DNA from: Squalus acanthias
Taxonomy: Eukaryota
Direction: 5' to 3'
Assembly (NCBI GenBank): GCA_030390025.1
Contig: CM059431.1
Coordinates: forward strand, 152,398,001 to 152,462,000
Length of the DNA: 64,000 nt
Part shown: positions 3,594 to 50,049 of the stretch, one piece after another
Position numbering within the stretch: the first letter of the stretch is position 1
How the letters are laid out: each line of letters starts with the position of its first letter
Program-made: the position numbers and the translations under genes
The notes under the pieces: model-generated
Seen by the model: only the letters and a program-made list of their open reading frames with translations
What the model was told of the DNA's origin: nothing
Databases searched by the model: none

Positions 3594-3689
3594 CTTCCGT
3601 GCCACGTCCCGGGAGAAATAGCTGTAAGGTGCAAACTTTAGGTGGCACCGGTCCCCTGTCCTCTTGTTGATGATGTCGATTTCCCCACT
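3594..3689 (-). CDS. OSBP: OSBP (oxysterol-binding protein) internal exon, ORD domain; 96 bp, phase 0-0, intact
   Basis: cag|AGT...AAG|gtagg; translates SGEIDIINKRTGDRCHLKFAPYSYFSRDVARK, matching vertebrate OSBP SGEIDIVNHKTGDKCNLKFVPYSYFSRDVARK. Confidence 0.93.
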
Positions 3690-3746
3690 CTGTTAGCACA
3701 AAAACAAGAACGCGACGGTAAGTACTGGTCAGTTCAAGTATCCTCG

Positions 3747-6340
3747 GAACACAGGAGGAGGCCATTTAACCCCTCGAGCCTGTTACACAGGAACAGGAGG
3801 AGGCCATTTAACCCCTCGAGCCTGTTACACAGGAACAGGAGGAGGCCATTTAACCCCTCGAGCCTGTTACACAGGTATGATTTTTCAGAATTCATTAGAC
3901 TCGGGAACAGTGCCCATGGATTGGAGGGTAGCTAACGTTACCCCACTATTCAAAAAGGGGGGTAGGGAAAAAGCAGGTAATTACAGACCTGTAAGCCTTA
4001 CATCAGTTGTGGGCAAAATGCTGGAGTCCATCATTAAGGATGAAATAGCGGAGCACTTAGCAAATGGGGACAGGATAGGACAGAGTCAACATGGATTTAC
4101 AAAGGGTAAATCGTGCTTGACTAATCTATTGGAATTTTTTGAGGGAGTAACTGGTAAAATAGATGGGGGAGAGCCAGTAGATGTGGTGTACCTGGACTTC
4201 CAAAAGGCCTTCGATAAGGTCCCACATAAAAGATTAGCAGGGAAAATTGAAGCTCATGGGATAAAGGGGAAAGTATTGACGTGGATAGAGAACTGGCTGT
4301 CAGATAGAAAACAGAGAGTTGGAATAAACGGCTCATTTTCTGAATGGCAGGCAGTAACAAGTGGGGTACCACAGGGATCTGTCCTGGGTCCCCAGCTGTT
4401 CACAATTTACATTAATGACCTGGATCAGGGAGTCGGATGCAGCATTTCCAAATTTGCAGACGACACTAAACTAGGAGGGGGGGTGGGCTCAGAGGAGGAG
4501 ACCAGGAAGCTCCAGAGCGATTTGGACAGACTGGGTGATTGGGCGGATAAATGACAGATGCACTATAATGTGGACAAGTGCGAAGTTATCCACCTTGGGT
4601 GCAGGAACGGGAGGGCAAATTATTATTTAAATGGCAATAAATTGGGAGAGGGGGAAGTACAGAGAGACCTGGGTGTTCTTGTACACCAGTCACTGAAGGC
4701 GAGCATGCAGGTGCAACAGGCGATCAAGAAGGCAAACGGTATGCTGGCCTTCATAGCAAAAGGGTTGGAATACAGGAACAGGGATACCTTGCTGCAGCTG
4801 TACAGGGCACTGGTGAGACCACACCTCGAGTACTGTGTACAGTTTTGGTCGCCTCATCTGAGGAAAGATGTTCTTGCCATGGAGGGGGTGCAGCGGCGAT
4901 TCACCAGGCTGATACCAGGAATGGCGGGATTGACCTATGAGGAGAGACTATGTAGTTTAGGGATGTACACACTGGAGTTTAGAAGATTGAGAGGGGACCT
5001 CATAGAAGTGTATAAAATTCTGACAGGTCTAGACAGACTAGATGCAGAAGGAATGTTTCCCTTGGCGGGTGAGAACAGAACTAGAGGACATAATTTAAGG
5101 ATAAGGGCTAAACCATTTAGGACAGAAATGAGGGGGAATTTCTTCACTCAGAGGGTGGTGAACCTGTGGAACTCATTGCCACAGAGGGCAGTGTACGCCA
5201 GCTCATTAAATATATTTAAGAGGGAATTAGATATATTTCTACAGGCAAAAGGGGTTAAGGGTTACGGAGAGAAGGCGGGGACGGGATACTGAATTGGAGG
5301 ATCAGCCATGATCTCATTAAATGGCGGAGCAGGCTCGAAGGGCCGGATGGCCTACTCCTGCTCCTATCTTCTATGTATCTATGTATGTAACAGGAGGAGG
5401 CCATTCAGCCCCTCGAGCCTGTTACACAGGAACAGGAGGAGGCCATTCAGCCCCTCGAGCCTGTTACACAGGAACAGGAGGAGGCCATTCAGCCCCTCGA
5501 GCCTGTTACACAGGAACAGGAGGAGGCCATTTAACCCCTCGAGCCTGTTACACAGGAACAGGAGGAGGCCATTTAACCCCTCGAGCCTGTTACATAGGAA
5601 CAGGAGGAGGCCATTCAGCCCCTCGAGCCTGTTACACAGGAACAGGAGGAGGCCATTTAACCCCTCGAGCCTTTTACACAGGAACAGGAGGAGGCCATTT
5701 AACCCCTCGAGCCTGTTACATAGGAACAGGAGGAGGCCCATTCAGCCTCTCGAGCCTGTTACACAGGAACAGGAGGAGGCCATTCAGCCCCTCAAGCCAG
5801 TTACACAGGAACAGGAGGAGGCCATTTAACCCCTCGAGCCTGTTACATTGGAACAGGAGGAGGCCATTCAGCCCCTCGAGCCTGTTACACAGGAACAGGA
5901 GGAGGCCCATTCAGCCCCTCGAGCCTGTTACACAGGAACAGGAGGAGGCCGTTCAGCCCCGAGAGCCTGTTACATTGGAACAGGAGGAGGCCATTCAGCC
6001 CCTCGAGCCTGTTACACAGGAACAGGAGGAGGCCATTCAGCCCCTCGAGCCTGTTACACAGGAACAGGAGGAGGCCATTCAGCCCCTCGAGCCTGTTACA
6101 CAGGAACAGGAGGAGGCCATTTAACCCCTCCAGCCTGTTACACAGGAACAGGAGGAGGCTGTTTAACCCCTCCAGCCTGTTACACAGGAACAGGAGGAGG
6201 CTGTTTAACCTCTCCAGCCTGTTACACAGGAACAGGAGGAGGCCGTTCAGCCCCGAGAGCCTGTTACACTGGAACAGGAGGAGGCCGTTCAGCCCCGAGA
6301 GCCTGTTACACAGGAACAGGAGGAGGCCATTCAGCTCCCC
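3747..6340 (+). repeat. 42-bp minisatellite (3747-3874 and 5388-6340), split by the CR1
   Basis: Unit ACAGGAACAGGAGGAGGCCATTCAGCCCCTCGAGCCTGTTAC; resembles the antisense CR1 3' tail. Confidence 0.95.
3875..5387 (+). mobile_element. Young 5'-truncated CR1 LINE (RT domain to 3' tail) inserted in a minisatellite
   Basis: [34 protein letters not shown]; a single TGA at 4552-4554 separates the 225- and 244-aa ORFs; tail (CTATGTAT)n. Confidence 0.95.
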
Positions 6341-6630
6341 GTAGCCCTGTATCAATCCCAAACTAATCCCACTGTCCCACTCTCCCCATAGCCCTGTATC
6401 AATCCCAAAACTAATCCCACTGCCCGGCTCTCTCCCCGTAACCCTGTATCAATCCTAAACTAATCCCACTGCCCCGCTCTCTCCCCATAGCCCTGTATCA
6501 ATCCCAAAACTAATCCCACTGCCCGGCTCTCTCCCCGTAACCCTGTATCAATCCTAAACTAATCCCACTGTCCCGCTCTCTCCCCATAGCCCTGTATCAA
6601 TCCCAAACTAATCCTACTGCCCCGCTCTCA
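6341..6630 (+). repeat. About 47-50-bp minisatellite
   Basis: Unit AGCCCTGTATCAATCCCAAACTAATCCCACTGTCCCGCTCTCCCCAT. Confidence 0.9.
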
Positions 6631-7116
6631 GCCAATGATGTACGTTTGAAGTGTTGTCACTATTGTAAAGTATGGAAGGCGGCAGCCAATGAGCGCACAG
6701 AAAAGTCCCACAAAAAACAATGCAGTAAATGACTGGATCAAATGTTTTTATTTAAAAAGTGATGTTGGTTGAGGGATAAATATTGGCCCCAGGACACTGG
6801 GAAGAACTCCCCTGTTCTTCTTCCAAATAGTGACCATGGGATCTTTTACGTCCACTGGAGACAGCAGGCGGGGCCTCGGTTTAACATCTCACCCGAAAGA
6901 CGGGACCTTCGATAGTGCAGCACTCTCTCAGTACTGCCCCATCTGACGGCGCAGTGCCCCTCCCTCAGTGCAGCGCTCCCTCGATACTGCCCCTCCGACA
7001 GTGCGGTGCTCCCTCAGTACTGCCCCGCCGACAGTGCAGCGCTCCCTCAGTACTGCCCCTCCGACAGTGTGGTGCTCCCACAGTACTGCCCCGCCGACAG
7101 TGCAGCGCTCCCTCAC

Positions 7117-7649
7117 CTGGTCGATCCACAGCTTGCCTACGATGATGTTGTGCACTGTGGTGGTGACTTTTCTCCACGTGTAGTGGTGGCAACACGGTGG
7201 CATAGTGGTTAGCACTGGTGCCTCACAGCGCCAGAGACCCGGGTTCGAATCTGACCTCGGGTGACTGTCTGTGTGGAGTTTGCACATTCTCCCCGTGTCT
7301 GCGTGGGTTTCCTCCGGGTGCTCCGGTTTCCTCCCACAGTCCAAAAATGTGTGGGTTAGGTTGATTTGGCTATGATAAATTGACCCTTAGTGTTAGGGGG
7401 GATTAAATATGTGGGGTTATGGGGATAGGATGGGATAGGTTAGGGGGAATTAAATACGTGGGGTTACGGGGGTAGGGTGGGATATGTGTACTGTGGGGAT
7501 TAAAGCAGGGACAGGGTACTGGATTTGGATGATCAGCCATGATCGTATTGAATGGCGGAGCAGGCTCGACGGGCCGAATGGCCTACTCCTGCTCCTAGAT
7601 TCTATGTTTCTATGTTTGCCGCTTTGATGGAAGGTGCAGTGGATGGAGC
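7117..7649 (-). pseudogene. OSBP: OSBP exon (104 bp) split into 7618-7649 and 7117-7188 by a SINE insertion
   Basis: cag|GC TCC ATC.. gives (G)SIHCTFHQSG, then a 429-bp insert, then HHYTWRKVTTTVHNIIVGKLWIDQ|gtgagg. The joined halves give the contiguous OSBP motif. Read-through into the insert stops at 7450-7452. Confidence 0.9.
7189..7617 (+). mobile_element. HE1-like V-SINE (tRNA head + V domain + CR1-type tail) inserted in an OSBP exon
   Basis: A box TGGCATAGTGG, B box GGTTCGAATC, V-domain TGTGGAGTTTGCACATTCTCCCCGTGTCTGCGTGGGTTTCCTCCGGGTGCTCCGGTTTCCTCCCAC, tail ..GAATGGCCTACTCCTGCTCC..(TCTATGTT)n. Confidence 0.9.
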
Positions 7650-7799
7650 CTGCAGCACAGAAGACACGTGCATCAGACGATTGGCACATCTTACACTTAA
7701 AAAGCACCAGAAGCAGGTCAGTGGACCATGTGTGTGCGGAGGGGGTGGGAGCGGGTAAACGGTAATTCTATTACACACATTTCTGGGCTCCACGTCTGC

Positions 7800-9035
7800 A
7801 TGACACTCCAGTCCGGGCCTGCGTGTGTGTGTGTGTGACTCCAGTCCGGGCCTGTGTGTGTGTCTGAGAGGCTCCAGTCCGGGCCTGTGTGTGTGTGAGA
7901 GGCTCCAGTCCGGGCCTGTGTGTGTGTGAGAGACACTCCAGTCAGGGCCTGTGTGTGTGTGAGAGACACTCCAGTCCGGGGAGTCTGTGTGTGTGAGAGA
8001 CACTCCAGTCCGGGGAGTCTGTGTGTGTGTGTCTGACACTCCAGTCCGGGCCTGTGTGTGTGTGTCTGACACTCCAGTCCGGGCCTGTGTGTGTGTGCCT
8101 GACACTCCAGTCCGGGCCTGTGTGTGTGTGTCTGACACTCCAGTCCGGGCCTGTGTGTGTGTGTCTGACACTCCAGTCCGGGCCTGTGTGTGTGTGTCTG
8201 ACACTCCAGTCCGGGCCTGTGTGTGTGTGTCTGACACTCCAGTCCGGGCCTGTGTGTGTGTGTCTGACACTCCAGTCCGGGCCTGTGTGTGTGTGTCTGA
8301 CACTCCAGTCCGGGCCTGTGTGTGTGTGTCTGACACTCCAGTCCGGGCCTGTGTGTGTGTGTCTGACACTCCAGTCCGGGCCTGTGTGTGTGTGTCTGAC
8401 ACTCCAGTCCGGGCCTGTGTGTGTGTGTCTGACACTCCAGTCCGGGCCTGTGTGTGTGTGTCTGACACTCCAGTCCAGGCCTGTGTGTGTGTGTCTGACA
8501 CTCCAGTCCGGGCCTGTGTGTGTGTGTGAAAGACTCCAGTCCGGGCCTGTGTGTGTGTGAAAGACTCCAGTCCGGGCCTGTGTGTGTGAGAAAGACTCCA
8601 GTCCGGGCCTGTGTGTGTGTGAAAGACTCCAGTCCGGGCCTGTGTGTGTGTGAAAGACTCCAGTCCGGGCCTGTGTGTGTGTGTGACTCCAGTCCGGGCC
8701 TGTGTGTGTGTGAAAGACTCCAGTCCGGGCTTGTGCGTGTGTGACTCCAGTCCGGGTCTGTGTGTGTGTTTTTAAGACTCCAGTCCAGGCCTGTATGTGT
8801 GTGTGACACTCCAGTCCTTACCCAGTCTGGGACTATGTGTGACTCCAGTCCTTACCCAGTCTGGGACTATGTGTGACTCCAGTCCTTACCTAGTTTGGGA
8901 CTACAGGTGACTCCGGTCCTTACCCAGTCTGGGACCATGTGTGACTCCGGTCCTTACCCAGTCTGGGACTATAGGTGACTCCGGTCCTTACCCAGTCTGG
9001 GACCATGTGCGACTCCGGTCCTTACCCAGTCTGAC
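7800..9035 (+). repeat. Two adjoining 32-33-bp minisatellites sharing an ACTCCAGTCC core
   Basis: GACACTCCAGTCCGGGCC(TG)nTCT to about 8810, then GTGACTCCAGTCCTTACCCAGTCTGGGACTAT. Confidence 0.95.
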
Positions 9036-9166
9036 CCAATAAATGCTGGCTTTGCCAGCAATGCCCACGACCAGAGAAGGAATATAATGAATGATATATT
9101 GTTTTGAAACCACCCACACAGCAAGCTGGGATTGTTGCCCAGCTGGTGAATCACTGGCACACTTAC

Positions 9167-9287
9167 CCAGGGGCATGATGGACAGGTATTTGCCTCGGAA
9201 CTTGCTGGCGATGGCTATCTCCTGGCGCAGTGCCCAGCCATTCTTGGACTCGGCGTGATGGGCAGCGGCCGGAGGGTGGTGGCTGAC
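9167..9287 (-). CDS. OSBP: OSBP exon carrying the (EQ)VSHHPP signature; 121 bp, phase 0-1, intact
   Basis: cag|GTC..CTG G|gtaagt; VSHHPPAAAHHAESKNGWALRQEIAIASKFRGKYLSIMPLG. Confidence 0.95.
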
Positions 9288-10611
9288 CTGGGGAGGGGGT
9301 TCAAAGCAGCACACCGTTAAAAACATTACGCCCTCCCCCGAAACGATCCAATCAGTGCCTCCTCCTGGCGACAGGTCAACCCCGCGTCCTAACAGGGGGC
9401 CCCGTGGGCTTCAGTTAGAGTGAGCTTCCCTTCACCGGTTACCAGATCTGCCGTAACCACCCCACTCTGAACAAAGCCAGAAGTACTTCAGCTTTGATCG
9501 GAGTCCGTTCGCTCGCTGGCCTGCTTCGGGCTCCCGCTCCGGCAATGCTTCGATTTTAAAACTCGGCCTGATTTTCAAATCCCTCCCGGGCCCTCGCGCC
9601 CCCACACCCCCCACTCTTCCCTAACTCTGTAACCTCCTCCAGCTCTACAACATAACATAAGAAATAGGAGCAGGAATAGGCCACTTGGCCCCTCCAGCCT
9701 GCTCCGCCATTCAATAAGATCAGGGCTGATCTTGGGCTCAAAGCCACTTCCCTGCCCGCTCCCCATAACCCTTCACTCCCTTATCTTGCAAAAATCTGTC
9801 TATCTCTACCTTCAATGTATTTCATGACCCAGCCTCCACAGCTCTCTGGGGCAGAGAATTCCACAGATTTACGACCCTCTGAGAGAAGAGATTCCTCCTC
9901 ATCTCAGTTCTAAAAGGGCGACCCTTTATTCTGAAACTATGCCCCCCGAGTTCTAGATCTCCCCACGAGGGGAAACGTCCTCTCTGCAGCTACCTTGTCG
10001 AGCCCCCTCAGCATCTTCTATGTTTCAACCTTCGGAGATCTCTGCGCTCCTGCAATTCTGGCCTCCTGCCCATCTCCCAATTTCCAAATCGCTCCAACAT
10101 TGGCGGCCGTGCCTTCATGTGCCTCGGCCCCAAGCTCTGGAATTCCCCTCCGTGAACACCTCTACCTTTCTTTTCTCCTCCTTAAATCCTACCTCTTTGA
10201 CCAAGCTTTTGGTCACCTGCCCTAATATCTCATGTGGCTCGGTGTCAAACTTGTGTCTGATTAACGCTCCTGGTGAAGTACCTCGGAACCTTGTTGGGAC
10301 GTTAAAAGGCGCTGTTGTCTCAAAGCACTTTGCAGCCAATGAAGTACCTTTTGACGTGCGGTCACGGTTGTGATGTCGGAAACGCGGCAGCCAATTTGCG
10401 CACAGCAAGCTCCCGCAAACAGCAACGTGATCGTGACCGGTTCACCTGCTTTTCAGCTGCTGTTGACCGAGGGATCTGGAGCTGGTGAAAGGCGCTGTAT
10501 ACACGCAACTCCCTTCTTCCTTTGATCAAAGTTACCCAGTTAATAGGCCGCAGCTACACCTCAGCCCTGTGAAGCGAGGACTAAAGCCTAACCTCCAGAA
10601 AGAGAGGGGAG

Positions 10612-10862
10612 CTACAGCACGGGTTAGATACAGAGTAAAGCTCCCTCTACACTGTCCCATCAAACACTCCCAGGGCAGGTACAGCACGGGTTAGATACAG
10701 AGTAAAGCTCCCTCTACACTGCCCCATCAAACACTCCCAGGGCAGGTACAGCACGGGTTAGATTCAGAGTAAAGCTCTCTCTACACTGCCCCATCAAACA
10801 CTCCCAGGGCAGGTACAGCACGGGTTAGATTCAGAGTAAAGCACTATCTACACTGTCCCATC
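10612..10862 (+). repeat. About 67-bp tandem repeat, about 4 units
   Basis: TACAGCACGGGTTAGATACAGAGTAAAGCTCCCTCTACACTGTCCCATCAAACACTCCCAGGGCAGG. Confidence 0.9.
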
Positions 10863-11529
10863 GCAGAAGCCGGCATTAGATACAGCACAGCAACTTATAT
10901 TTCTTTAACAATTTTAGGGTAGAAAAGATATCCCAAAATGCTTCACAGCGGTGTGAGGAACAAAAACTGAAAGGCAACAGAGCAAATATTAGCACGATGG
11001 ACCAATAGCTCGGGAGGGGCATGAGCACGGACAGATTTAAACTCACACACGGCTTAGAAAAATCTCTCTATTGACAGAGCGTTAGAATAAAGCAGTCTGA
11101 AGTGGCGCCAGGATACCACACACCAGCTACCCCGATATGGCCCGCTCCCCCGTACCGCGCACCCAGATATAGCCTATGGGGCTTCTGCCACACGGGTTTC
11201 CCGCAGGGGGGCTTACAATTACACACAGCATAAAAAGCAGCCCATTCGGCCCGACAGGTCGATGCCGGTGTTTATGCTCCACACGAGCCTCCTCCTACCA
11301 CTCTTCATCTAACCCCAATCAACATATTCTCCGAGTCCTTGGCCTTTCAACCCTCCCTGGGCCTAGGATCAGCAAGCCTAAACGTGGCGCCCACTACTTC
11401 TGGCCTGTTGAGATCTTGGCAGCTGAACTCATCATCAGAAGCATAATAACATAAGGAATAGGGTCAGGAGTAGGCCATTCGGCCCCTCGAGCCTGCCCCG
11501 CCATTCAATAAGGTCACGGCTGATCTGAT

Positions 11530-12105
11530 CATAGAATCATAGAAAGTTACAGCACGAAGGAGGCCATTTCAGCCCATCGTGTCCACGCTGGCCAACAAAG
11601 AGCTGTCCAGCCTAATCCCACTTCCCAGCTCTTGGTCTGCAGCCCTGCAGGTTAGAGCATCCCAAGTGCACATCCAAGTACTTTTTAAATGTGGTTAGGG
11701 TTCCTGCCTCTACCACCCTTTCAGGCAGTGAGTTCCAGACCCCTACAACCCTCTGAGTGAAGCAGTTTCCCCTCCAAACCTTCCCCCAATTACTTTAAAT
11801 CTGTGCCCATTGGTTTTTGACCCCTCTGCTAAGGGAAATAGGTCCTTTCTATCCACTTTATCTAGGCCCCTCATAATTTTATACACCTCAATAAGGTCTC
11901 CCCTCAGCCTCCTCTGTTCCAAGGAAAACAGACCCAGCCTATCCAATCTTTCCTCATAGCTAAGATTCTCTACTCCCGGCATCATCCTTGTAAATCTCCT
12001 CTGTACCGTCTCTAGTGCAACCACATCTTTCCTGTAACGTGGTGACCAGAACTGCACGCAGTACTCTAGCTGAGGCCTAACTAGTGTTTTATACAGTTGA
12101 AGCAT
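11530..12105 (-). mobile_element. CR1 3' fragment nested in another CR1 tail
   Basis: LYKTLVRPQLEYCVQFWSP..RRLRGDLIEVYKI. Confidence 0.88.
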
Positions 12106-12302
12106 AACCGTTGAAGCATGATCTTGGCCTCAACGCCACTTTCCGCTCCCCATAACCCTGGACTCCCCTGTAGCTCAAATATATGTCGACCTCCGCCTTG
12201 AATATATTCAATGACTCCGCCTCCGCAGCTCTCTGGGGTAGAGAATTCCAAAGATTCACGACCCTCAGAAGAAATTCCTCCTCCTCCCGGCTCTCCACCT
12301 AC

Positions 12303-12624
12303 CGGTTCTCCATCGGCTCCTCACCCTCTTCGGAACGCCCCCCGGTCGGCTCGGCTCCGCTGAAGGTGAAGGAGATGCAGCTCCGCCGGCGGGGATATTC
12401 CGACTTGCGCCTGCGTTGCGCCGGGGCAGCCCCGGGCCGGGCCCTGTGGCGGTTTCTGCTGCCGCTGCTCGCGCCCCCGCAGGCTGGCCGTGGCCCCCTT
12501 CGCCGGCTCGGCCTCGCCCTGGCCCCAGCCTGCCAGTCGGCGCGGTCCCAATCTGCCTCCTGGCACAGCACTGCCTCCTCTACCAGCTGCTCCTGCTCAC
12601 CTACGATCAGGATCCTCCGCTTCG
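12303..12624 (-). CDS. ZFP91: ZFP91-like N-terminal exon (322 bp, phase 1-2); orphan, with no downstream zinc-finger exons seen
   Basis: Pyrimidine-rich acceptor ..ctcgttcccag| and donor CG|gtaggt. Open frame KRRILIVGEQEQLVEEAV...AQRRRKSEYPRRRSC resembles the ZFP91 N-terminal motif SRRRKAEYPRRRR. CpG-rich. Confidence 0.62.
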
Positions 12625-13659
12625 CTGGGAACGAGAGGGGGGAGAAAGAGAGAGAGACGGCCCATTAATACCGGCACAGGAGAGACCCTGGGACACACGA
12701 GAATCAATGGGCATGGCCGTCAATCCAAGCACTGGGTACATCTCGGAGCACCCGATCATAGAGACATCACAGACTCTGGTGAGTGGGCAACATCCTGCAG
12801 TATTTATTCAGAGTCTCTCACAGACCCCAGTGAATGAGGGGGAATATCCTGCAGTATTTATTCAGTGTCTCTCACAGACCCCAGTGAATGAGGGGAATAT
12901 CCTGCAGTATTTATTCAGAGTCTCACAGACCCCAGTGAATGAGGGGAATATCCAGCAGTATTTATTCAGAATCTCTCAGACCCCGGTGATTGAGGGGGAA
13001 TATCCTGCAGTATTTATTCAGAATCTCTCAGACCCCAGTGAACGAGGGGAATATCCTGCAGTATTTATTCAGTCTCACAGACCCCAGTGAATGAGGGGAA
13101 TATCCTGCAGTATTTATTCAGGGTCTTGTCCGACATCCACTATTGGATGAGCAGAAATTTCCTCCACCTAAATACTGGGAAGACCGAAGCCCTTGTCTTT
13201 TAAAATTCTCATCCTTGATTTCAAAATCACTCCATGGCTTCGCCCCTCCCCATTTCTAATCTCCTCCAGTCCTGCAACCCTCCAAGATATCTGCGCTCTG
13301 CCAATTCTGGCCTCTTGAGCATCCTCGATTTTAATCACTCCACCATTGGTGACCTTGTCTTCAGCTGCCAAGGCCCCCAAGCTCTGGAATTCCCTCCCTA
13401 AACCTCTCCACCTCTCCTACTTGAAGACTCTCCTTAAAAGCTAGCTCACTGACCAAGCTTTTGGTCACCTGCCCTAATATCTCATGTGGCATGGTGTCAA
13501 AATTTGTTTGATAACACGCCTGTAAAGCACCTTCAAACATTTTACAATGTTAAAGGCGTTATATAAAGACAAATTGTTGTCGTATCACAGACCCTGGTGA
13601 GTCAGGAACATCCTGCTGTATTTATTCAGGGTCTCTCAAGGAGCCTGGTGAGTGGGCTT

Positions 13660-17770: not shown

Positions 17771-18159
17771 TGTCGTCTTTCGGATGAGACGTTAAACCGA
17801 TGCCCCCTGAGGTGGGAAGTAAAAGATCTCATGGCATTCTTCGAAGAGGAGCAGGGGTGTTCTCCCCGGTGTCCTGGCCAATATTTATCCCTCACCAAAA
17901 ATCAGATTATCTAGTCCTCATCATATTGCTGTTTGTGGGAGCTTGCTGTGCGCAATTTAGCTGCCACGTTTCCTACATTACAGCAGAGACTGTAGGTCCC
18001 GCATTGGACTCATCAGTCACCTGAGAACTGATCTTTAATGTGGAAGCAAGTCATCCTCTGTTCCGAGGGACTGCCTAAGAAAAAAACGACAACAGTGAGT
18101 ACACTTTACAGAAGTACTTCATTGGCAGTAAAGCATTGACTGAGCGCAGCGCTTCCCCA

Positions 18160-19610: not shown

Positions 19611-20239
19611 CCCCCCGACAGTGCAGCTCCCTCCGTAGTGCAGCTCCCTCCGTACTGCCCCTCCAACAGTGCAGCACTCCCTCAGTACTGCCCCTCCGAC
19701 AGTGCAGCGCTCCCTCAGTACTGCACCGGGAATGTCAGCCTGGATTTTGGAGTGGGGGCTTGAACCCACGACCTTCGGACTGAGAGGAGAGAGTGCTACC
19801 CACTGAGCCACGGCTGACACACAAGGCTGCCAGGCGAGTGCTGGAGGGGGACAAGTGCATCAGCGCTGGAGCGACGGAGACTGGTGACGTTAGAGACATG
19901 AATTCAGCTCGGGAATCACAACAAGACACCATGGTTGAGCCTCACACAGCGGCTGGGAAAAAGGGGATGGAATCGGTGACGTGGATGCGTCGCTCGTGGT
20001 TTAAACGATGGCTTCAACCTTCCCATTGTCTGACTGGAGGAAGCTGCAGCTCATTCAAGACTAGACTTTAGACAAGCAGTCTGGACAGCACAGGGAGGGG
20101 GAGGTGGAGAGCTGGAGCTGGCTGTCACTGTGCCTGTATGAAAACAGACCCCCTTGTTTTGGTCTCCCGCTTGTGGAGGGAAGCCAGAACTAGGGGCTAT
20201 AAATAGAAGATAGTCACTACTAAATGTCCTTGTGCATGA

Positions 20240-20905
20240 AACACAAAAAGTTAGCATGCATGTACAGCAAGGCAAATGGAATGTTGGCCTTTATTGCAAG
20301 GCGGTTGGAGTATAAAAGCAAAGAAGTCCTGCTACAACTGCACAGGGCGTTGGTGAGGCCGCACCTGGAGTACTGCGCACAGTTTTGGTCTCCTTATTTA
20401 AGGAGGGATATACTTGCATTGGAGGCAGTTCAGAGAAGGTTCACGGGGTTGATTCCTGAGATGAAGGGGTTGACTTATGAAGAAAGGTTGAGCCTATACT
20501 CATTGGAGTTTAGAAGCACGAGAGGTGATCTTATCGAAACATAAGAGATACTGAGGGGGCTCGACAAGGTAGTTGCAGAAAAGATGTTTCCCCTCATGAG
20601 GGAATCTAGAACTAGGGGGCACAGTTTCAGAATAAGGAGTCGCCCATTTAAAACTGAGATGAGGAGGAATTTCTTCTCTCAGAGGGTCGTAAATCTGTGG
20701 AACACTCTGTCCCAGAGAGCTGTGGAGGCTGGGTCATTAAATACATTGAAGGTGGAGATGGACAGAGTTTTGAACAATAAGGGAGTGAAGGGTTATGGGG
20801 AGCAGGCAGGGAAATGGAGCTGAGCCCAAGATCAGCCATGATCTTATTAAATGGCGGAGCAGGCTCGAGGGGCCAAGTGGCCGACTCCTATTTCTTGTTT
20901 TCTTA
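20240..20905 (+). mobile_element. CR1 3' fragment
   Basis: KANGMLAFI..RPHLEYCAQFWSP; standard tail. Confidence 0.88.
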
Positions 20906-21967
20906 AATCCAATCGGGAATTCAGGAGAGACTTCTTTACACAGAGAGTGGTGAGAATGTGAAACTCGCTACCACAAGGAGCAGTTGAAGCGAATCGCAGA
21001 CATGCATTTAAGGGGAAACACACGAGGGAGAAAGGAATAGAAGGATTCGCCGATAGGGTGAGATAAAGAGGAGTGGGAGGAGCCTCGTGGAGCATCAACA
21101 CCGGCACGAACCAGTGGGGCCCAATGGCCTGTTTCTGGGCTGTACAATCTATACAATGATGGCACTACGGGGAAGCATGTAGATTAGGAAGAGGAGAGGG
21201 CCAAGGATAAGCTGAGGAGTAGCAAGAGTTGGGAGCAGGGATGAAGACTGTCTTGGTGCTGGGGAATGGGGAATCTAAATTATTCAACATTCAACCAACG
21301 GGTGCATTTTAAACTACTGCAACTGCAATTTGCATTTATATAGCGCCTTTAACATAGTAAAACGTCCCAAGGCGCTGCACAGGAGTGTCATCAGACAATA
21401 ATTTGACAGAGCCACATAAGGAGATATTCTTGGTCAACGAGGTAGGTTTTAAGGAGCGTCTGAAAGCAGAGAGAGGCGGAGGTGTTCAGGGTGGGAATTT
21501 CAGAGCTCAGGGCCGAGGGAACTGAAGGCACAGCCGCTAATGGTGGAGCGATTAATATCAGGGATGCTCAAGAGGCCAGAATTGGAGGAGAGCAGAGATC
21601 TTGGAGGGTTGCAGGGCTGGAGGAGGGCGAGGCCATGGAGGGATTTGAACACAAGGCTAAGAATTTTTAAAGGTCGAGGTGTTGCTGGACCGGGAGTCAA
21701 TGTAGGTCAGCGGGCACAGGGGGTGATGGGTTAAAAGGACTTGGTGCGAGTTAGGAGACCAGCAGCAGAGCTTTGGATGGGCTCAAGTTTACGGAGGGTG
21801 CAAGGCAGGAGGCCGGGCAGGAGAACACTGGAATAGGCGAGTCAAGAAGTAACAAAAGGCATGGATCAGCAAAGGCAGGGGCAAAGATGGGCGAGATTAC
21901 GGAGCATTCACAGCAACAACCGCCATTGAAATTCAGGGCCAAGACTGCTTCATAACTGTGAACATGA

Positions 21968-22128
21968 ACCCGAACAATTCCCCTAATTACAGAACCCTAA
22001 CAATTCCCCTAATTACAGAACCCTAACAATTCCCCTAATTACAGAACCCTAACAATTCCCCTAATTACAGAACCCTAACAATTCCCCTAATTACAGAACC
22101 CTAACAATTCCCCTAATTACAGAACCCT
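21968..22128 (+). repeat. 26-bp tandem repeat containing CCCTAA twice per unit
   Basis: AACCCTAACAATTCCCCTAATTACAG, about 6 copies. Confidence 0.95.
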
Positions 22129-23128
22129 CCCCCACCAATTATAGACAGGCCAACAGCAACAATCCACCAGTAATTGTGAGCATTACTGCAGTAAGATTAA
22201 AGAAGAAAAAGACTTGCATTTATATCGTGCCTTTCATGACCACCGAACGTACCAAAGCGCTTTACAAGATGAAGTACATTTTGAAGTGTCGTCTCTGTTG
22301 TAATGTGGGAAACGCGGCAGCCAATTTGCGCACAGCAAGCTCCCACAAACAGCAATGTGATAATAACCAGATAATCTGTTTTGGTGATGCTGATTGAGGG
22401 ATAAATATTGGCCCCAGGACACCGGGGAGAACTGCCCTGCTCTTCTTCGAAATAGTGCCGTGGGATCACCTGAGAGCGCAGACGGGGGACTCAGTTTAAC
22501 ATCTCATCCAAAAGACGGCACCTCCGACAGTGCAGCACTCCCTCAGCACTGCACTGCAGTCTCGGCATCGATTTGGGCTCAAGTCCCTGGAGTAGGATTT
22601 CAACCCATAACCGCATGACTTAGAGGCGAGAGTGCGATCAACTCAGCCATTGGCTGTCACAAATCAACTCCCAGCATTCGGCAAATTACTAATACACACT
22701 TTAATACGGAGTCACATTTTTTTAATAATGGCAATTAGAATTCCCAAACAATGCTATCAGTGTAGTAACAGAGCCAATATCTGGTAGGAATATTACAGCT
22801 GTACGGTAGCATTGTTTTACACCAATAGTAATGGTTAACACGTTAACCCAAAGATTTCCATGTTACACCAGGCTGATTGAGCCCAGTTCTACACTGCCAC
22901 CAATATTAACACCACAGCTCCCATTCCTGACTACTAACCCTATCTCACACTGATACTGTTACTGGGCTACAGTGCCATTATTTCTCAGTAAATGTGTCTG
23001 ATACATACAGTGCTGCTCTATTGATAGTACAATAGTGATTGTCTTCATTTGTGCTTGGTTTGATCACCTCAAGAAAGAATCTCGTCACCACCCATAAGGT
23101 GTCTGGGTCGCATTTATTACAAAGCTGG

Positions 23129-23217
23129 CGACCGCAACAAGACTCGAACCTCCAACCGACGGATAACAGTACGATTAGCACCAAAGTCAGACGCCTTATA
23201 CTTTAAGCCGTGCGGCA
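23129..23217 (-). tRNA. tRNA pseudogene, Arg(TCG)-like body, with a 16-nt insert at the canonical 37/38 intron position; anticodon now TTG
   Basis: Minus strand: TGCCGCACGGCTTAAAGTATAAGGCGTCTGACTTTGG-tgctaatcgtactgtt-ATCCGTCGGTTGGAGGTTCGAGTCTTGTTGCGGTCG. B box GGTTCGAGTC, acceptor pairing CCGCA/TGCGG, 73+16 nt. Anticodon stem is mismatched. Confidence 0.7.
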
Positions 23218-23331
23218 ACTAAGCTAATGAGTTCAAAGTGTACACCTGTACTTGAACAGATTGGAGCTTTTTTCTTTAGACAGAGGTGACCTGATAGAGG
23301 GCTTTAAGGTTATAAATCGGTTGGACAGGGA

Positions 23332-23490
23332 CAAGGTTCCCTCTAATTTTTTGGGGGGTCACACGGCCCCTTTAATGGGCTGCGCAGCCCATTCAAAAGT
23401 CCGCGGATGTGCATTTTTTTAAATCTAAAAGCAGGCTCACGGCTGCGCGGGACCTGCAGAGCGCTGCGCGGACGCTGAAAGGGAGCGTTG
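23332..23490. mobile_element. Small hAT-like MITE in a CR1 fragment
   Basis: Ends CAAGGTTCCCTCT / AAAGGGAGCGTTG; similar 8-bp flanks GACAGGGA / GACAGGAC. Confidence 0.55.
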
Positions 23491-24185
23491 GACAGGACAG
23501 ATATGGAGAGATTGTTTCCACGTGTGGAAGAATCCAAAACTACAGGCCAGAAATACAAGATAATTACTAATCAATCCAATTGGGAAATAAGGAGAAATTT
23601 CATTACTTAGAATGTGGAACTCGCTACCACAGGAAGTGGTTGAGGCAAATAGCTTAGATGCTTGCAAAAGGAAACTAGACGAGTACATGAGAGAAAAGGG
23701 AATAGAAAGATATGCTGAAAGGCTGAGATGAGGCAGATAGAATAGGAGGAGACTTGTGTGGAGTATAAACACCGGCACAGGCTAGTTAGGCCTGTATATT
23801 CGATGTAATTCTATGTAAAACGCAGGTTATTTCTGCATTTTAATTTTCACTGTTTCATTGCCAGGCAGCGCAAATAAAATTATATGTACACCATATCTTC
23901 ATGGGCTCTTGCTCGAATCTTCTTTCACCTGTCTATTCTTACACTCTACTCTATTACTGACCCTGTGTCATAGGAACAGGAGTAGGCCAATCAGCCCCTC
24001 GAGCCTGTTCCGCCATTCAATGAGATCATGGTTGATCAGTATCTTAACTCCATCCACCTGCCTTGGCTCTATATCCTTCTATAACCTTGCCTAGCAAAAA
24101 TCCAGCGATCTCAGATTTAAAATGATTAATTGAGCTAGCATCTAAAGCTTTTTGTGGGAGAGTGTTCCACACTACTACCACCACA

Positions 24186-24650
24186 GTGTCAGCTGTGGCT
24201 CAGTGGTTAGCTCACTCGCCTGAGTCAGAAGGTTGTGGGTTCAAGTCCCACTCCAGGGACTTGAGCACATCAAGCTAGGCTGACACTCCAGTGCAGTGCT
24301 GAGGGAGTGCTGCCCTGTTGGAGGTGCCATCTTTCGGATGAGACGTTAAACTGAGGCCCCGTCTGCCCTCTCGGGTGGACGTAAAAGATCCCATGGCACT
24401 ATTTCGATGAAGAGCAGGGGAGTTATCCCCGGTGTCCTGGTCCATATTTATCCCTCAATCAACATCACCAAAACAGATTGTCTGGTCATCATCACATTGC
24501 TGTTTGTGGGACCTTGCTGTGCGCAAATTGGCTGCCGCGTTTCCCACATTATAACAGTGGCTACACTCCAAAAGTACTTAATTGGCTGTAAAGCGCTTTG
24601 AGACGTCTGGTGGTCGTGAAAGGCGCTATATAAATGCAAGTCTTCCTTTC
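24186..24650 (+). mobile_element. Full-length tRNA-derived Deu-domain SINE. Further copies near 2008-2320(-), 6630-7116(-), 17005-18135(+), 22205-22660(-), 36578-37035(+), 47190-47627(-).
   Basis: A/B boxes TGGCTCAGTGG / GGTTCAAGTCC; Deu core GATGAGACGTTAAAC..AAAGATCCCATGGCAC..CCCCGGTGTCCTGG; L2-like tail GGCGCTATATAAATGCAAG. Confidence 0.85.
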
Positions 24651-25971
24651 TGTGAAAAAGTGTTTCTGAACTTCTCCCCTGAATAGCCTGGCTCCGATTT
24701 TAAGGTTGTCCTAGAATCCCCCACCAACGGGAAAAAAGTTTCCCTCTATCTACCCTATCAAAATCCTAAAAACCTCAATCAAATCACCACTTAACCATCG
24801 ATATTCCAGGGAATACAAGCCGAGTTTGTGCAATCGCCGCATAATCTAACCCTTGGAGTCCTGGTATCATTCGGCACTCCTTCAAAGGCCAGTATATCGT
24901 AAGATGCAGTGCCCAGAACTGTACACGGTACGCCAAATGTGGTCTAACCAGGGCTTTGTATAGCAAAAGTTCCTCCTCTCACATTGATAGTGGGATTATG
25001 AACGTGATTAATACTTCCTTTCCCTCGAGTACTGACACTGCCTCACACACTGATACCCAGGCTAACATATTAATTCTTTCAACCCAACAGTACTGATCCT
25101 GCCTCACCCCCCCAACAGTATTAACTATATACCCGCTCAACTACTGAGTGTATTAATACTCAACCGCTCGATTACTGACAGTAGGCTCGCTGCTGTATAA
25201 TAGCTTGGGGGGGGGGGCACAGCTTCACAAAATATTACAAGCAGCACCTCAGTTGCATCAGGATGCAAAAAACACGAATAGAACTTTAGGATTTTATCTC
25301 TAGGGGTATAGAATATAAAAGCCAAGTAATAATGGGCCTACAGAAAACCTTAGTAATGCCTCAGTTAGAGCACTGTTGGCAGTCTTGGGCTCCGCACTAT
25401 ATTGTGGCTTCAGAGAGGGTACAATGCACATTGCACCAAGATGAAACCTGGTGTGAGGAAATGCGAATGCGAACAAAGACTTGAAAAAGTAGATCTTTTA
25501 TCGTTATAATGCAGATGACTGGGTAGATAGAAGTAGACGGATTCATAGAATGACAGACTTTACAGCACAGAAACAGGCCATTCGGCCCAACTGGTCCGTG
25601 CCGGTGTACATGCTCCACATGAGCCTCCTCCCACCCTTCGTCATCTCACCCATCAACATATCCTTCTATTCCTTTCTCCCTCAAGCACTTATATAGCTTC
25701 CCATTAAATGCCTCGACGCTATTCACCTCAACCACTCCCTGTGGTAGCGAGTTCCACATTCTCACCACTCTCTGGGTAAAGAAGTTTCTCCTGAATTCCC
25801 GATTGGATTTATTTGTGACTATCTTGTATTTATGGCCCCAAGTTTTGGTCTCCCCCACAAGTGGAAACATCGAGCTATTCGAACCATTTCATAATCTTAA
25901 AGACCTCTATCAAGTCAGTACGCAGCCTTCTCTTTTCTAGACAAAGAGCCCCGGCCGGTTCAATCTTTCCT

Positions 25972-27145
25972 GCTCAAACATGGACAAAGGAGCTGAATTC
26001 CAGAGGTGAGGTGAGAGCGGCTGCCCTTGACATCAAGGCAGCATTTGACCGAGTGTGGCATCAAGGAGCCCCAGTAAAACTGAAATCAATGGGAATCGGG
26101 GGGAAAACTCTCCACTGGCTGGAGTCATACCTAGTACAAAGGAAGATGGTTGTGGTGATTGAAGGTCAATCATCACAGCTGCAGGAGTTCCTCAGGGCAG
26201 TGTCCTCGGCCCAACCATCTTCAGCTGCTTCATCAATGACCTTCCCTCCATCATAAGGTCAGAAGTGAGGATGATCACTGATGACTGCACAGTGTTCAGC
26301 GCCATTCACAACTCCTCAGATAACAAAGCAGTCCATGCCCACATGCAGCAAGACCTGGACGACGTTCAGGCTTGGGCTGATAAGTGGAAAGTAACATTCG
26401 CGCCACAGAAGTGCCAGGCAATGACTATCTCCAACAAGCGAGAGTCTAACCACCTCCCCTTGACATTCAATGGCATTACCATCGCCGAATCTCCCATCAA
26501 TATCCTGGGGGGTCACCATTGACCAGAAACTTAACTGGACCAGCCACATCAATACTGTGGCAACAAGAGCAGGTCAGAGGCTGGGTATTCTGCAGCGAGT
26601 GTCTTAGCTCCCGACTCCCCAAAGCCTTTCCACCATCTACAAGGCACAAGTCAGGCGTGTGATGGAATACTCTCCACTTGCCTGGATGAGTGCAGCTCCA
26701 ACAACACAAGAAGCTCGACACTATCCAGGACAAAGCAGCCCACTTGATTGGCACCCCATCCACTGCCTCCACCACCGGCGTACCGTGGCTGCAGTGTATA
26801 CCATCTGCAAGATGCACTGCAGCAACTCGCCAAGGCATCTTCAGCAGCACCTCCCAAACCCGCAACCACTTCCACCTAAAAGGACAAGGGCAGCAGGCAC
26901 ATGGAAACACCACCAACTCCAAGTTCCCCTCCAAGTCACACACCATCCTGACTTAGAAGTATATCGCCGATCCTTCATCGTCACTGGGTCAAAATCCTGG
27001 AACTCCCTACCTAACAGCACTGTGGGAGGACCTTCACCACACGGACTGCAGCGGTTCACCACCACCTTCTCAAGGGCAATTAGGAATGGGCAATAAATGC
27101 TGGCCTTGCCAGCGATGCCCACATCCCATAAACAAATAAAAAAAG
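25972..27145 (+). mobile_element. Same non-LTR family, RT to 3' end
   Basis: ALDIKAAFDRVWH, TDDCT; 3' UTR matches 13680-13900 and 46150-46370. Confidence 0.85.
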
Positions 27146-28221
27146 ATACGGAGGGTTACTGCCCATATTAATACTGGCCCTCAGATACTGAGAGTTACAG
27201 ACAGTATTAATAATGCCCCATAGATGCTGAGGCTAACTGAGTATAAGTAATACCGCCGCCCCTCACACAGATATGGAGGATAACAAGCATTAATATTCCA
27301 CTGTCCCTCAGATACTGAAGGCTACTGACCATATTAATACTGCCCCTCAGATAATGAGGGTAAATGACGGTATCTGAGAGGGGCAGTATTAATACAGATA
27401 CAGAAGGTTACTGACAGTATTAATGCTCCAACATCCCTTATAGATACAGAGTCTTAATAGTATTAATACTACCCTGCAGATACTGAGGGCTAATACAGCA
27501 TTAATACTGCTCCACACAAAAACTGAGGGTAACTGACAGTATTAATACACCTCCCCTAACAAACAGACAGTATTAATACACGCCCCCAACAGACTATTAA
27601 TACACCCCTCCAACACACACAGTATTAATACACCCCCCAACAGACAGTATTAATACACCCCCAACCTCCCCCAATACAGACAGTATTAATACACCCCCCA
27701 ACACACACACACTGACTGTGTGTTGGGGGTGTGTATTAATACTGTCAGTGTGTGTGTGTGTTGTGGGTGTATTAATACTGACAATATTAATACACCCCCC
27801 CAACAGACAGTAATACACCCCCAACAGACAGTAATACACCCCCTCTAACACACTGACATGAATACACACCCCGAACACCCCCCAACACAGTATTAATACA
27901 CCCCACCAACAGACAGTATTAATACCCTCTCTAACACGCACACACGCTGACAGTATTAATACACCCCCAACACACTGACAGTATTGATACAATACACCCG
28001 CAACACACACACGCTGACAGTATTAATACACCCCCAAGACAGTAATACACCCCCCTAACAGACATTAATAGACACCCCTAACACCCCAACACAGACAGTA
28101 TTAATACACCCCACCGACAGTATTAATACACCCCCCCCAACAGACAGTATTAATACCCCCCTCTCACGCGCACACACTGACAGTATTAATACACCCCCCC
28201 AACACACACACACTGACAATA

Positions 28222-29778
28222 TCATAGAATCATAGAAGATAGGAGCAGGAGTAGGCCATTCGGCCCCTCTAGCCTGCTCCACCATTCAATGCGATCATTG
28301 CTGATCATCCAAATTCAGTACCCTGTCCCTGCTTTCTCCCCATATCCCTTTAGCCTTAAGAAATATATCCAACTCCTTCTTGAATCTATTTAATGAATTG
28401 GCCTCTTCTGCCTTCTGTGGCAGAGAATTCCAGAGGTTCACCACTCTCTGGGTGAAGAAATTCCTCCTCATTTCTGTCCTAAATGGCTTACCCTTTATCC
28501 TTAGACTGTGACCCCTGGTTCTGGACTCCCCGACCATCAGGAACATCCTTCCTGCATCTAGTTTGTCCTGTCCTGTCAGAATTTTATAAGTTTCAATGAG
28601 ATCCCCTCTCATTCTTCTAAACTCCAGCGAGTATAAGCCCAATCGACCAATCTCTCTTCATACGTCATTCCTGCCATCCCAGGTATCAGCCTTACACACA
28701 GAATACACAGAATCCCCACAGTGCAAATCGAGGCCATTTCGGCCCATCGAGCCTGCACCGACACATATCCCAGCCTATCCCCGTAACCCCACGTATTTAA
28801 TCCCCCTAACACTAAGGGTCAATTTATCATAGCCAAATCAACCTAACCCGCACATCTTTGGACTGTGGGAGGAAACCGGAGCACCCGGAGGAAACCCACG
28901 CAGACACGGGGAGAATGTGCAAACTCCACACAGACAGTCACCCGAGGCCGGATTCGAACCCGGATCCCTGGCCCTGTGAGGTAACAGTGCTATCCACTAT
29001 GCCACCGTGTTGCCCTTGTGAATCTTCGCTGAACTCCTTCCATGGCAAGAACATCCTTCCTCAGATAAGGCAACCAAAACTGCACACAGTACTCAAGGTG
29101 TGGTCTCACCAAGGCCCTGTACAACTGCAGCAAGACATCCTTGTTCCTATACTCAAACCCTCTCGCTATGAAGCCCAACATACCATTTGCCTTCTTAACC
29201 GCCTGCTGCACCTGCATGCTTACCTTCAGCGACTGGTGCACAAGGACACCCAGGTCTCGTTGCACTTCCCCTTCTCCCACTCTATTGCCATTCAGATAAT
29301 AATCTGCCTTTCTGTTTTTGACACCAAAGTGGATCCACGTTATATTGCATCTGTCACGCTTCTGCCCAATTACCCAACCTGTCCAAATCATCCTGGAGTT
29401 TCTCGGCATCCTCCTCGCAGCACACACGCCCACCCAGTTTTGTGTCGTCTGCAAACTTGGAGATATTACATCTAGTTCCCTTGTCTAGATCATTAATATA
29501 TATTGTGAATAGCTGGGGTCCAAGGACTGATCCCTGCGGTACCCCACTAGTCACTGCCTGCCACTCGGAAAAAGACCCGTTTATTGCAACTCTTTGCTTT
29601 CTGTCTGCCAACCAGTTTTCTATCCAAGTCAATACCTTGCCCCCAATCCCATGTGCCTTAACTTTACACGCTAATCTCTTATGCGGGACCTTATCAAATG
29701 CCTTTTGGAAGTCCAAATACACCACATCCACTGGTTCTCCCTTATCTATTTTACCAGTTACATCCTCAAAAAATTCCC
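28222..29778 (-). mobile_element. 5'-truncated CR1 LINE, same subfamily as 14606-15717, interrupted by a V-SINE
   Basis: [27 protein letters not shown]; long stretches closely match 14606-15717. Confidence 0.93.
28694..29014 (-). mobile_element. HE1-like V-SINE nested in a CR1 copy; short CTT/CCTT duplication
   Basis: Same head and V domain as 7189-7617. The host CR1 reads cagccttgtg in the uninterrupted sister copy near 15077. Confidence 0.9.
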
Positions 29779-30099
29779 AACACACACACACTGACAGTAT
29801 TAATACAAAAATCAGAAGTCGCACAACACCAGGTTATAGTCCAACAGATGTATTTAATTTTACAAGCTTAATACAGGCAGTATTAATAAACACACCCCCT
29901 AACATACACTGATAGTATTAATACAGATAGTATTAATAAACACCCCCCCTAACACAGACAGTATTAATACCCCTCTCTGACCCACACACACTGACAGTAT
30001 TAATGCCTCTCTGACCCACACACACTGACAGTATTAAATCCCCTCTCTGACCCACACACACTATTACTGACACTATTCCCACTGTCCAGCCTCCCTCCC

Positions 30100-31450
30100 T
30101 CCCTCTTCTCTCGGACACTCACCTGCTGACGCTCCCGGCCCGAGGCCCCGCTCCTAGCCCTGCCCCGGGCCCTGGCTCTGGCTTGTGCCCGCTCTCGCTA
30201 CCGCTCCTGTTCCTCCTCCTCCTCCTGCTGGACTTCCACCTCCACCTCCACCTCCTCCTCCTCCTCCTCTCCTTCCTCCTGCTTGACCAGGCAGGGCGCG
30301 GCCAGGCCGAGAGCCGAGGCCTGCTGCTGCTGCTGCTGCTGGTTCTGCCTCCTCCTCCTCCTCCTCCTCCTGCCGACCCCCGGGCCCGGGACAGCTCGGT
30401 GACACTGAGCCGCCGCCATCTTCTCCAGAGTCTCCGCCAAACACACACAAAAAAAAACCGCCACCGCCAGAGCGCGCACGCACGTACAGACAGACGCGAG
30501 CGGGCACGCCCTCCAAACACCCGAGCACGCCGCCTCTCTTTGTCTGCCAGAGCCCTGCGCCTGCGTCAATCGGGGGTAACCGGGGACCCGCCCCCCACTT
30601 TTATGCCCTCCGCACGCACGCAGGCGCGCAATCGTCGCCGCTGGCAACAAACGCCGTGAGTGACAGCCCTGCGGCCCCCGCCCACCGCACGCCAGCGTCA
30701 CCCCCTGACACTCGCTCGTGAGTGAGTGACAGATCCCGGGGCCCTGCCTCTGCACTCAGTCGTCACCCCTGACAACCGCGCCTTGAATGACAGATTGCGG
30801 CCCCGCCCATCGCCCCTCAGCGCGGCCGCCGCCGAACGGGTGACTGACAGATGGAGCAGCATTGAGACCCCGCCCCTTCCACCGCACCCGCCCCTCATCT
30901 CCCGGGCAACAGTGAGTGACAGCAAGGACCCGCCTAACACCCCGCCCACCGACCCGCGCCTCCTCTCTCTCTCTCTCTCTCTCTCTGTCTCCCTGACAAC
31001 CGGACGGTGAGTGGCCCGGCATCGAGTGACTGACAGAAGGAGCAGCCTTGAGACCCCGCCCCTCATCTCCCGGGCAACAGTGAATGACAGCAAGGCCCTG
31101 CTCTACGCCCCGTCTACCCCCCCGCCCCCCCCTGTCTCCTGTCGCCCCTGACAACCAGAGAGCCTGACCCCAAGGGGTCACTGGGCACTTTTTCCATTTG
31201 ATGATAAAAATCCTAGAATGTCCCAGCACCAGGAAGGTGGCCGTGGGCTGTGGCGGTGGAGAGTGTTGCGCGGGGGGCGCTCGTGTGCAATGGGTTTTTG
31301 GACAATGTCCGCGGGGCCGCCTGTCGCTCTGGCGGTCTGGAAGAGTCGATGGAGCGTCTCCCAAACTGGGCTGCCCGTGTCCTAGCTCGCACCATGTCCC
31401 CTTCACCCACCCCGCCCTGTGCTCGCCCACCTACATCGGCTCCTGGTCCC
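30100..31450. promoter_or_regulatory. CpG-island promoter with a YY1-type site, GC boxes and seven TGAnTGACAG decamers
   Basis: High CpG density; AAGATGGCGGC on minus near 30412-30422; several CCCCGCCC; decamers at 30657, 30723, 30784, 30841, 30913, 31027, 31081. Confidence 0.75.
30123..30419 (-). pseudogene. First coding-type exon in a CpG island (possibly the upstream exon of the ZFP91-like unit) with an in-frame TAG
   Basis: AAGATGGCGGCG start context; MAAAQCHRAV..VKQEEGEEEEEEVEVEVEVQQEEEEEQER* with TAG at 30198-30200; the frame continues RERAQARAR..RQQ to a consensus donor CAG|gtgagt at 30122. Confidence 0.55.
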
Positions 31451-35024: not shown

Positions 35025-35027
<3 letters not shown>

Positions 35028-35068
<41 letters not shown>

Positions 35069-37305: not shown

Positions 37306-37346
37306 TTCACTCCCCTCTGCTCGGAGCTGCTTTTTGCTGCGATCTC

Positions 37347-50014: not shown

Positions 50015-50049
<35 letters not shown>

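Follow-up and report, generated by a model that had tools for sequence, protein, structure and literature searches.

A 64,000-nucleotide stretch of the shark Squalus acanthias (assembly GCA_030390025.1, contig CM059431.1, here C7, positions 152,398,001-152,462,000; the window) carries exons 1-2 of a ZFP91 gene joined to exons 9-13 of an OSBP gene. This is one of two such fusions, and it probably arose at a segmental-duplication breakpoint and makes no working protein now. The latter prediction is made because every splice route through the fusion meets an early stop. We regard the fusion as a duplicate because a complete OSBP and ZFP91 from exon 3 onward stand elsewhere, and because the fusion exists in two diverged copies. 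It is a duplication-born fusion pseudogene of a known kind: a chimeric duplicate and, in this haplotype, a pseudogene. Below, the parent OSBP is called O, the fusion in the window W, its sister fusion B and a third copy of the OSBP 3' part C. OSBP exons are numbered by the 14 coding blocks of O.

On re-reading the sequence, the exons of the original prediction, a ZFP91-like 5' end followed by late OSBP exons, were found on the minus strand where it had placed them; the parts of W given here are on that strand unless stated. A CpG island (30100..31000; GC 0.68, CpG observed/expected 0.83 vs 0.48 for the window) covers the duplicated ZFP91 promoter and exon 1, and has one other copy alone in the assembly. 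Exon 1 (30123..30419), 297 bases from the ATG to a phase-0 GT donor, matches shark ZFP91 (E 2e-7) and holds an in-frame TAG at codon 74 (30198-30200). Intron 1 (12632..30122) is repeat-rich and collinear with that of B, with 2.26% substitutions over 10,272 sites. Exon 2 (12303..12631) ends in a phase-2 donor, and its peptide matches shark ZFP91 at 66% identity (E 5e-26); all 24 matches listed were cartilaginous-fish proteins. The ZFP91-like identity of this exon therefore holds, but its start had been put at 12624, whereas alignment to B and to other sharks' ZFP91 places the natural acceptor at 12631, AG in B and CG in W. With that acceptor lost in W, 12624 is a cryptic site, an AG 7 bases inside the exon. 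W exon 2 also carries deletions of 31 and 11 bases relative to B. Next comes a putative remnant of ZFP91 intron 2 (10863..12302) with a CR1 piece, of which there are two assembly copies and a third version in read contigs.

The OSBP part begins within intron 8, whose 3' part (9288..10616) is 96.9% identical to the parent over 1477 columns. Exon 9 (9167..9287) has a phase-0 acceptor, starts at VSHHPP, matches Pfam PF01237 (Oxysterol_BP) and differs from the parent at 0 of 121 bases. Exon 10 spans 7117..7649, a size that had been taken for an OSBP exon; it is in fact a parent-identical exon of 104 bases split by a very young short interspersed element (SINE) of 429 bases (7188..7616, plus strand, antisense to the gene), which has a CR1-like tail and introduces in-frame stops. 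Exon 11 (3594..3689) is unchanged from the parent (0/96), as is exon 12 (C7:152397009-193; 0/185), and exon 13 (C7:152395685-905) differs at 1 of 221 bases, the last two exons lying outside the window. The match of the three blocks in the window to shark OSBP bears out their earlier assignment. A scaffold gap lies 12 bases past exon 13, at the end of the W contig.

The two parts meet at one breakpoint, at window 10613-10616, in a 4-base microhomology (TGTA), which narrows the 9288-12302 interval of the original prediction. A minisatellite (10605..10862; 67-base unit, 3.9 copies) ends there. In W and B alike, the match to OSBP stops at base C7:150,436,748 in OSBP intron 8, where the 67-base minisatellite ends; O has gained a CR1 piece 40 bases downstream of the breakpoint site, and W and B are without it. 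Both fusions keep their introns across a genomic junction of two genes, the arrangement of a chimeric duplicate. They lie on one contig with zero N from 152,395,673 to 153,210,000 (814 kb). A mis-join appears highly improbable, as it would need base-exact recurrence in two sequences 2-3% apart on a gapless contig; haplotigs placed side by side were rejected, W and B sharing that contig.

A Pfam scan found four OSBP-type exon sets at the end of C7, and a DNA search with exon 9 returned the same four. O (C7:150.34-150.46 Mb), about 2 Mb from W, has 14 of 14 coding blocks in order, no stop in the matching parts and a single 200-N gap, in intron 7. B (C7:153.12-153.15 Mb) is inverted relative to W and 730 kb away, and C (C7:153.70-153.72 Mb) starts at a gap just upstream of exon 9. 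Exon 14 was found in O and C only; the W side ends at the scaffold gap. The whole window (1..64000, minus strand) lies inside a block of about 124 kb with an inverted duplicate at C7:153.01-153.15 Mb (collinear at 67,241 sites, as far as window coordinate 121,644). The block around W thus exceeds 1 kb and is more than 90% identical to another place, as expected of a segmental duplication. For ZFP91, exons 1 and 2 and two intron probes were each located at W and B only in the assembly. From exon 3 on, the gene lies on an unplaced scaffold, C3603, which begins within intron 2 and carries micro-exon 3 at 4833-4864 and the next exon at 14.1 kb; its finger exons are 91-100% identical to other sharks' ZFP91. 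The exon or exons for about residues 262-425 of shark ZFP91 were not found on C3603, where a 200-N gap stands at the expected place. The only ZFP91 5' ends in the assembly are therefore the two broken fusion copies, the working gene being partly assembled. Another shark has a ZFP91-like protein (P0024) annotated under an unrelated name as a 332-residue piece, which starts inside exon 2 and ends without fingers; the ZFP91 locus of other sharks may likewise be poorly assembled or partly duplicated.

Read contigs, which collapse paralogs, were aligned for 4 of 21 runs; none of the runs is recorded as RNA, and two of the four were guessed to be so. In the two likely-RNA runs, contigs begin precisely at the 12303 donor, where 33 and 32 letters stay unaligned, and end, we infer, at about 12632. 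They carry 11 bases and alleles absent from W exon 2, that is, an undamaged exon 2. By size alone the unaligned 32-33 letters fit the 32-base ZFP91 exon 3. Intron-2 contigs in three runs are without an 18-base deletion present in B and also differ from W. Being unlike both, they indicate a third, unassembled version of ZFP91. Both parents thus persist outside the fusions, OSBP complete, and ZFP91 as 3' exons on C3603 and as a 5' end in read contigs alone. B itself was considered as the true ZFP91 5' end and rejected for its exon-1 frameshift and its 18-base intron deletion, the latter absent from the read contigs.

These findings bear on the origin first proposed for the locus, a deletion or rearrangement of the genes themselves. 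That working genes were destroyed in this way, or that the join is an assembly error, now appears highly improbable. The assembly holds exons 1-2 in the two fused copies only, as such a loss would predict, but OSBP is complete, the ZFP91 3' exons are conserved, a third, undamaged version of exon 2 and intron 2 occurs in read contigs, and the base-exact same junction recurs in two copies 2-3% apart on a gapless contig. The complete OSBP at C7:150.34-150.46 Mb, the ZFP91 exons on C3603 and the two diverged fusion copies likewise contradict the proposed deletion.

The absences reported for the window were reproduced and extended: by tblastn, no PH-domain, OSBP exon-8 or zinc-finger exon was found in it or in the surrounding 832 kb, so that W is without the C2H2 zinc-finger array of ZFP91. 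Decay of the locus was also confirmed. Lesions in W lie on every reading route, namely the exon-1 stop, the lost exon-2 acceptor and the SINE stops in exon 10, as expected of a pseudogene. The phases given earlier for the exon-2 donor (2) and the exon-9 acceptor (0) are correct, and whichever acceptor is used, 12631 or 12624, exon 2 joins exon 9 out of frame. A second route had been overlooked, since exon 1 spliced to exon 9 with exon 2 skipped joins phase 0 to phase 0 and is in frame, but it meets the TAG of exon 1. Micro-exon 3 of ZFP91 was tried as a frame-fixing exon between 12302 and the junction and rejected; it was found on C3603 only and ends in phase 1. No open reading frame crosses the fusion, as one would in a working fusion gene of the CHRFAM7A or HYDIN2 type, a stop standing at codon 74 in W and in the frameshifted exons 1+2 of B. 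In B, exon 1 is frameshifted (197 bases) and leads to this stop once spliced, exon 9 has lost 4 bases and carries a stop, exon 13 has lost 18 bases, and no exon 14 was found. C has a stop in exon 12. In W, all splice sites of exons 9-13 are intact.

A predicted fusion product would start its OSBP part at VSHHPP and would not contain the whole ORD with lid and EQVSHHPP signature. It would be without the PH domain, the FFAT region, the lid, exon 8 and the first 101 of 368 Pfam positions, and without shark OSBP residues 348-461 as matched to PDB 7v62; the lid is described as closing the lipid pocket (PMC7385082). Compared with OSBP and ZFP91 of sharks, exons 9-13 of W encode the parent's exact amino acids and exons 1-2 are those of ZFP91, while the PH domain, FFAT region, lid, exon 8 and zinc fingers are missing. 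In an open stretch of intron (window 9288-9326, minus strand), an in-frame ATG stands 39 bases ahead of OSBP exon 9. It is present in O and not in C, and would be a possible alternative start for a cut OSBP.

Two features of W were missing from the original prediction, the exon-1 stop and the unchanged OSBP amino acids. We compared exons 9-13 of each copy with O over 727 bases (563 non-synonymous and 163 synonymous sites). W showed 0 non-synonymous and 1 synonymous changes, B 8 and 1, and C 9 and 1. The pooled 17 non-synonymous and 2 synonymous changes of B and C indicate drift; exon 2 of W decays likewise, whereas its OSBP exons do not. That none of 17 non-synonymous changes should fall on W has a binomial P of 0.0009, or 0.003 allowing for the picking of one of three copies. 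The intron rate of W predicts 5.8 non-synonymous changes, with P(0) of 0.003. Within 50 bases of these exons, the intron flanks of W differ at 9 of 383 sites (2.35%), so the conservation is confined to exons. Clean OSBP exons are the pattern expected of a gene under selection until lately and, on this reading of the sequence, W may have been coding until recently.

This pattern could mean that W was a working gene for most of its life, read in frame from exon 1 to exon 9, until the stop and the SINE killed it late, perhaps in some haplotypes only. We consider this unlikely. The product would have consisted of an acidic leader from ZFP91 followed by the final two thirds of the lipid-binding domain of OSBP, and selection would have held the OSBP exons while exon 2 decayed. 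The absence of non-synonymous changes on W, an exon-specific effect, is in keeping with such a history. So are the matching phases of exons 1 and 9, the state of exon 2 (no acceptor, two deletions), the intact splice sites of exons 9-13 and a SINE only 0-1 base from its other copies. Against this, the exon-1 stop is undated, and exon 2 would probably stay in the transcript through its cryptic AG, which lies 7 bases inside and follows the same pyrimidine tract. A function is hard to see, because the product has neither PH domain, FFAT region nor lid and is short of the first 101 of 368 Pfam positions. No fusion protein was found among the 24 database matches for exon 2 and the 6 for exon 1, and a further search gave 0 matches, low-complexity queries making these weak searches. 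The conservation test was, moreover, made post hoc and with small counts. We put forward tentatively, and with more doubt than belief, the history of a fusion gene observed as it died: out of frame at birth, it would have gained a frame by dropping exon 2, been kept unchanged by selection as a lid-less fragment while the sister copies decayed, and been knocked out late by a stop and a SINE. Were the knockout as late as the brand-new SINE would make it, intact alleles may still exist in the species.

Alternatively, the OSBP half of W could derive from a working full-length OSBP, either a lost duplicate or a very divergent parental allele. Unequal crossover, or an assembly switch close to where the contig ends, would have attached it to the ZFP91 half at a later time, and the clean exons would be a legacy of that donor and not of a fusion protein. 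This explains clean exons beside diverged introns with no function for half a domain, and the W contig does end 12 bases after exon 13. The four copies also share 31 sites in interleaved patterns that are mutually incompatible, which point to exchange or old polymorphism, and several intron sites vary between read contigs from different samples. Yet shared sites (11, 12 and 9) place W no nearer to the parent than B or C, and no switch point was seen. Divergence between W and B is 2.2-2.3% in the ZFP91 half vs 2.95% in the OSBP half, so that a swap from B would be old, and even then P(0) would be 0.002-0.013. An unseen donor, or alleles 2.9% apart, would be needed, and we find this origin of the OSBP half rather improbable. 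Recent conversion of W from the assembled parent was rejected, the introns of W differing from O evenly. In read contigs, exon 9 of W cannot be told from that of O.

The copies appear to be of about one age. Intron divergence from O is 167/5737 (2.91%) for W, 201/7249 (2.77%) for B and 144/4815 (2.99%) for C, in a star-like pattern, with odd sites for W, B and C numbering 77, 65 and 62 of 5119. A four-way comparison over 3097 sites gave 25-35 private sites, and 9-12 shared sites per pattern. It is this similarity of divergence and of site patterns that suggests a common age. Around exon 9, 29 of about 500 bases distinguish W from a contig of another organism; over the same bases O differs from W at 4 and B at no more than 14. 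Since that contig is farther from W than O and B are, the copies are likely younger than the species split. Absolute dating was tried and left unused: with 1.4% for each lineage and the 7e-10 per generation given for the epaulette shark (PMC10587355), the result is about 2e7 generations, too long to trust.

We still favor a fusion that arose as a duplicate and decayed, although several observations weigh against it. The OSBP exons of W do not drift as those of a pseudogene would: their single, synonymous change over 727 bases compares with 19 changes over 1412 bases in B and C together (Fisher P 0.004). DNA searches with exon 1, exon 2 and the intron probes did not find a working ZFP91 5' end in the assembly and, with that end missing and C3603 unplaced, the ancestral gene order can only be inferred. 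Both exon 14 of W and the 5' side of C fall at scaffold gaps. Finally, the two assembly copies of the junction agree, but among the read contigs listed none bridges it, repeats lying on both sides. The 12303-9287 joint was not seen among the matches listed in the two likely-RNA runs, whose aligned stretch leaves exon 1 outside, a result that weighs neither way on a fusion transcript or on the presence of W in other animals.

To account for the structure, we propose that OSBP, an ART/G-protein-coupled receptor (GPCR) cluster and ZFP91 would originally have stood in this order on one strand. A head-to-tail duplication with one end in OSBP intron 8 and the other in ZFP91 intron 2, sealed at the minisatellite by the 4-base microhomology, would have brought the last exons of OSBP under the ZFP91 promoter, with both parents kept intact. 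W, B and the third 3' copy C could then have come from later duplication and inversion, the fusion being a passenger in the expansion of the GPCR/ART cluster. ART and GPCR genes come after OSBP in O, B and C; in W and B, the cluster lies ahead of ZFP91 exon 1. Of the 5 shark species for which records of both genes are listed, 4 have ZFP91 and OSBP on contigs of equal length. Should the retained CpG island still be active, the RNA of W would be non-coding or a target of nonsense-mediated decay.

This origin has close parallels. A single duplication that cuts two neighbouring genes gives chimeric gene duplicates, a route described as common (Katju 2012, PMC3449122). The shark fusion resembles these in adjoining two partial genes from two genic donors with the parents kept, and differs in that its exons were out of frame as first joined and both copies now have stops. 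In CHRFAM7A, CHRNA7 exons 5-10 stand behind FAM7A exons 1.6 Mb from the parent (PMC9852989). Common to both cases are a conserved gene's 3' exons behind a foreign 5' end, a distance of 1.6-2 Mb from the parent and a predicted N-terminally cut protein. CHRFAM7A, however, is expressed and dominant negative (PMC9852989), whereas the shark fusion is known from DNA alone and its frame is broken. HYDIN2 and human segmental-duplication fusion transcripts, which include a 5'-truncated class (PMC6169893), share incomplete duplication, a borrowed promoter, gaps and hard-to-map paralogs (PMC5345166, PMC6169893). They have long-read transcript support and are >98% identical to their parents (PMC5345166, PMC6169893). 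The shark copies differ by about 3%, and in one of them conservation is confined to the exons. A preprint on 'tinkering loci' describes similar fragment-rich regions in flies (10.64898/2026.08.09.743762). In the papers that literature searches returned, no title or opening part of an abstract described the shark locus.

As a duplication-born fusion pseudogene W is ordinary, and the exon-only conservation raises it above the routine. Were selection on the fusion real, W would offer a rare case in which a shark chimeric gene can be followed, with dates, from birth through splice rescue to death, its two decayed sisters serving as neutral controls, and would imply a use for an OSBP fragment that has neither lid nor targeting domains. 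In practice, the assembled ZFP91 5' ends are all broken copies, and the three partial OSBP duplicates can mislead annotation and read mapping.

The surrounding 852 kb contains GPCR matches at 15 places and ART matches at 4, in nested duplicates 90-97% identical. The region C7:152.36-153.21 Mb, including window 43000-64000, holds a dense cluster of rhodopsin-type GPCR and ART genes and one gene for a core-2/I-branching enzyme. A 3' remnant of an ART gene at window 45341-45529 (plus strand) is 92% identical to a copy at C7:153.072 Mb. The ART beside O (L186, C7:150493003-150493879) aligns in several pieces, and the copies downstream of B (L081:4543-5427) and of C (C7:153676065-153676946) each align in one. 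The duplicates, and not the copy beside O, may have kept a working ART.

The exon-10 SINE was found at 39 other places at 99-100% identity among 40 scored. All nine copies checked differ by 0-1 base, and the tail is 88% identical to a CR1 end. An Rfam search with this SINE gave no significant match. It may resemble the shark HE1 family. HE1 is listed as a SINE family with a HER1 tail (PMC3747384). Intron 10 of W also holds a young CR1 insertion (3875..5386, plus strand), 99.4-99.7% identical to copies elsewhere; O, B and C are without it. With copies 99-100% identical genome-wide, the families of this SINE and of this CR1 are likely active now. Elsewhere in the window, a Myb/SANT-like open reading frame (PF13873) lies at 41222-41500 (minus strand), and one of 270 residues at 51879-52691 (plus strand) has no Pfam match. 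Both are presumably parts of Harbinger-type DNA transposons. A 15-kb tandem array with a period of about 78 bases (C7:152380079-152395172) ends at the scaffold gap adjoining W.

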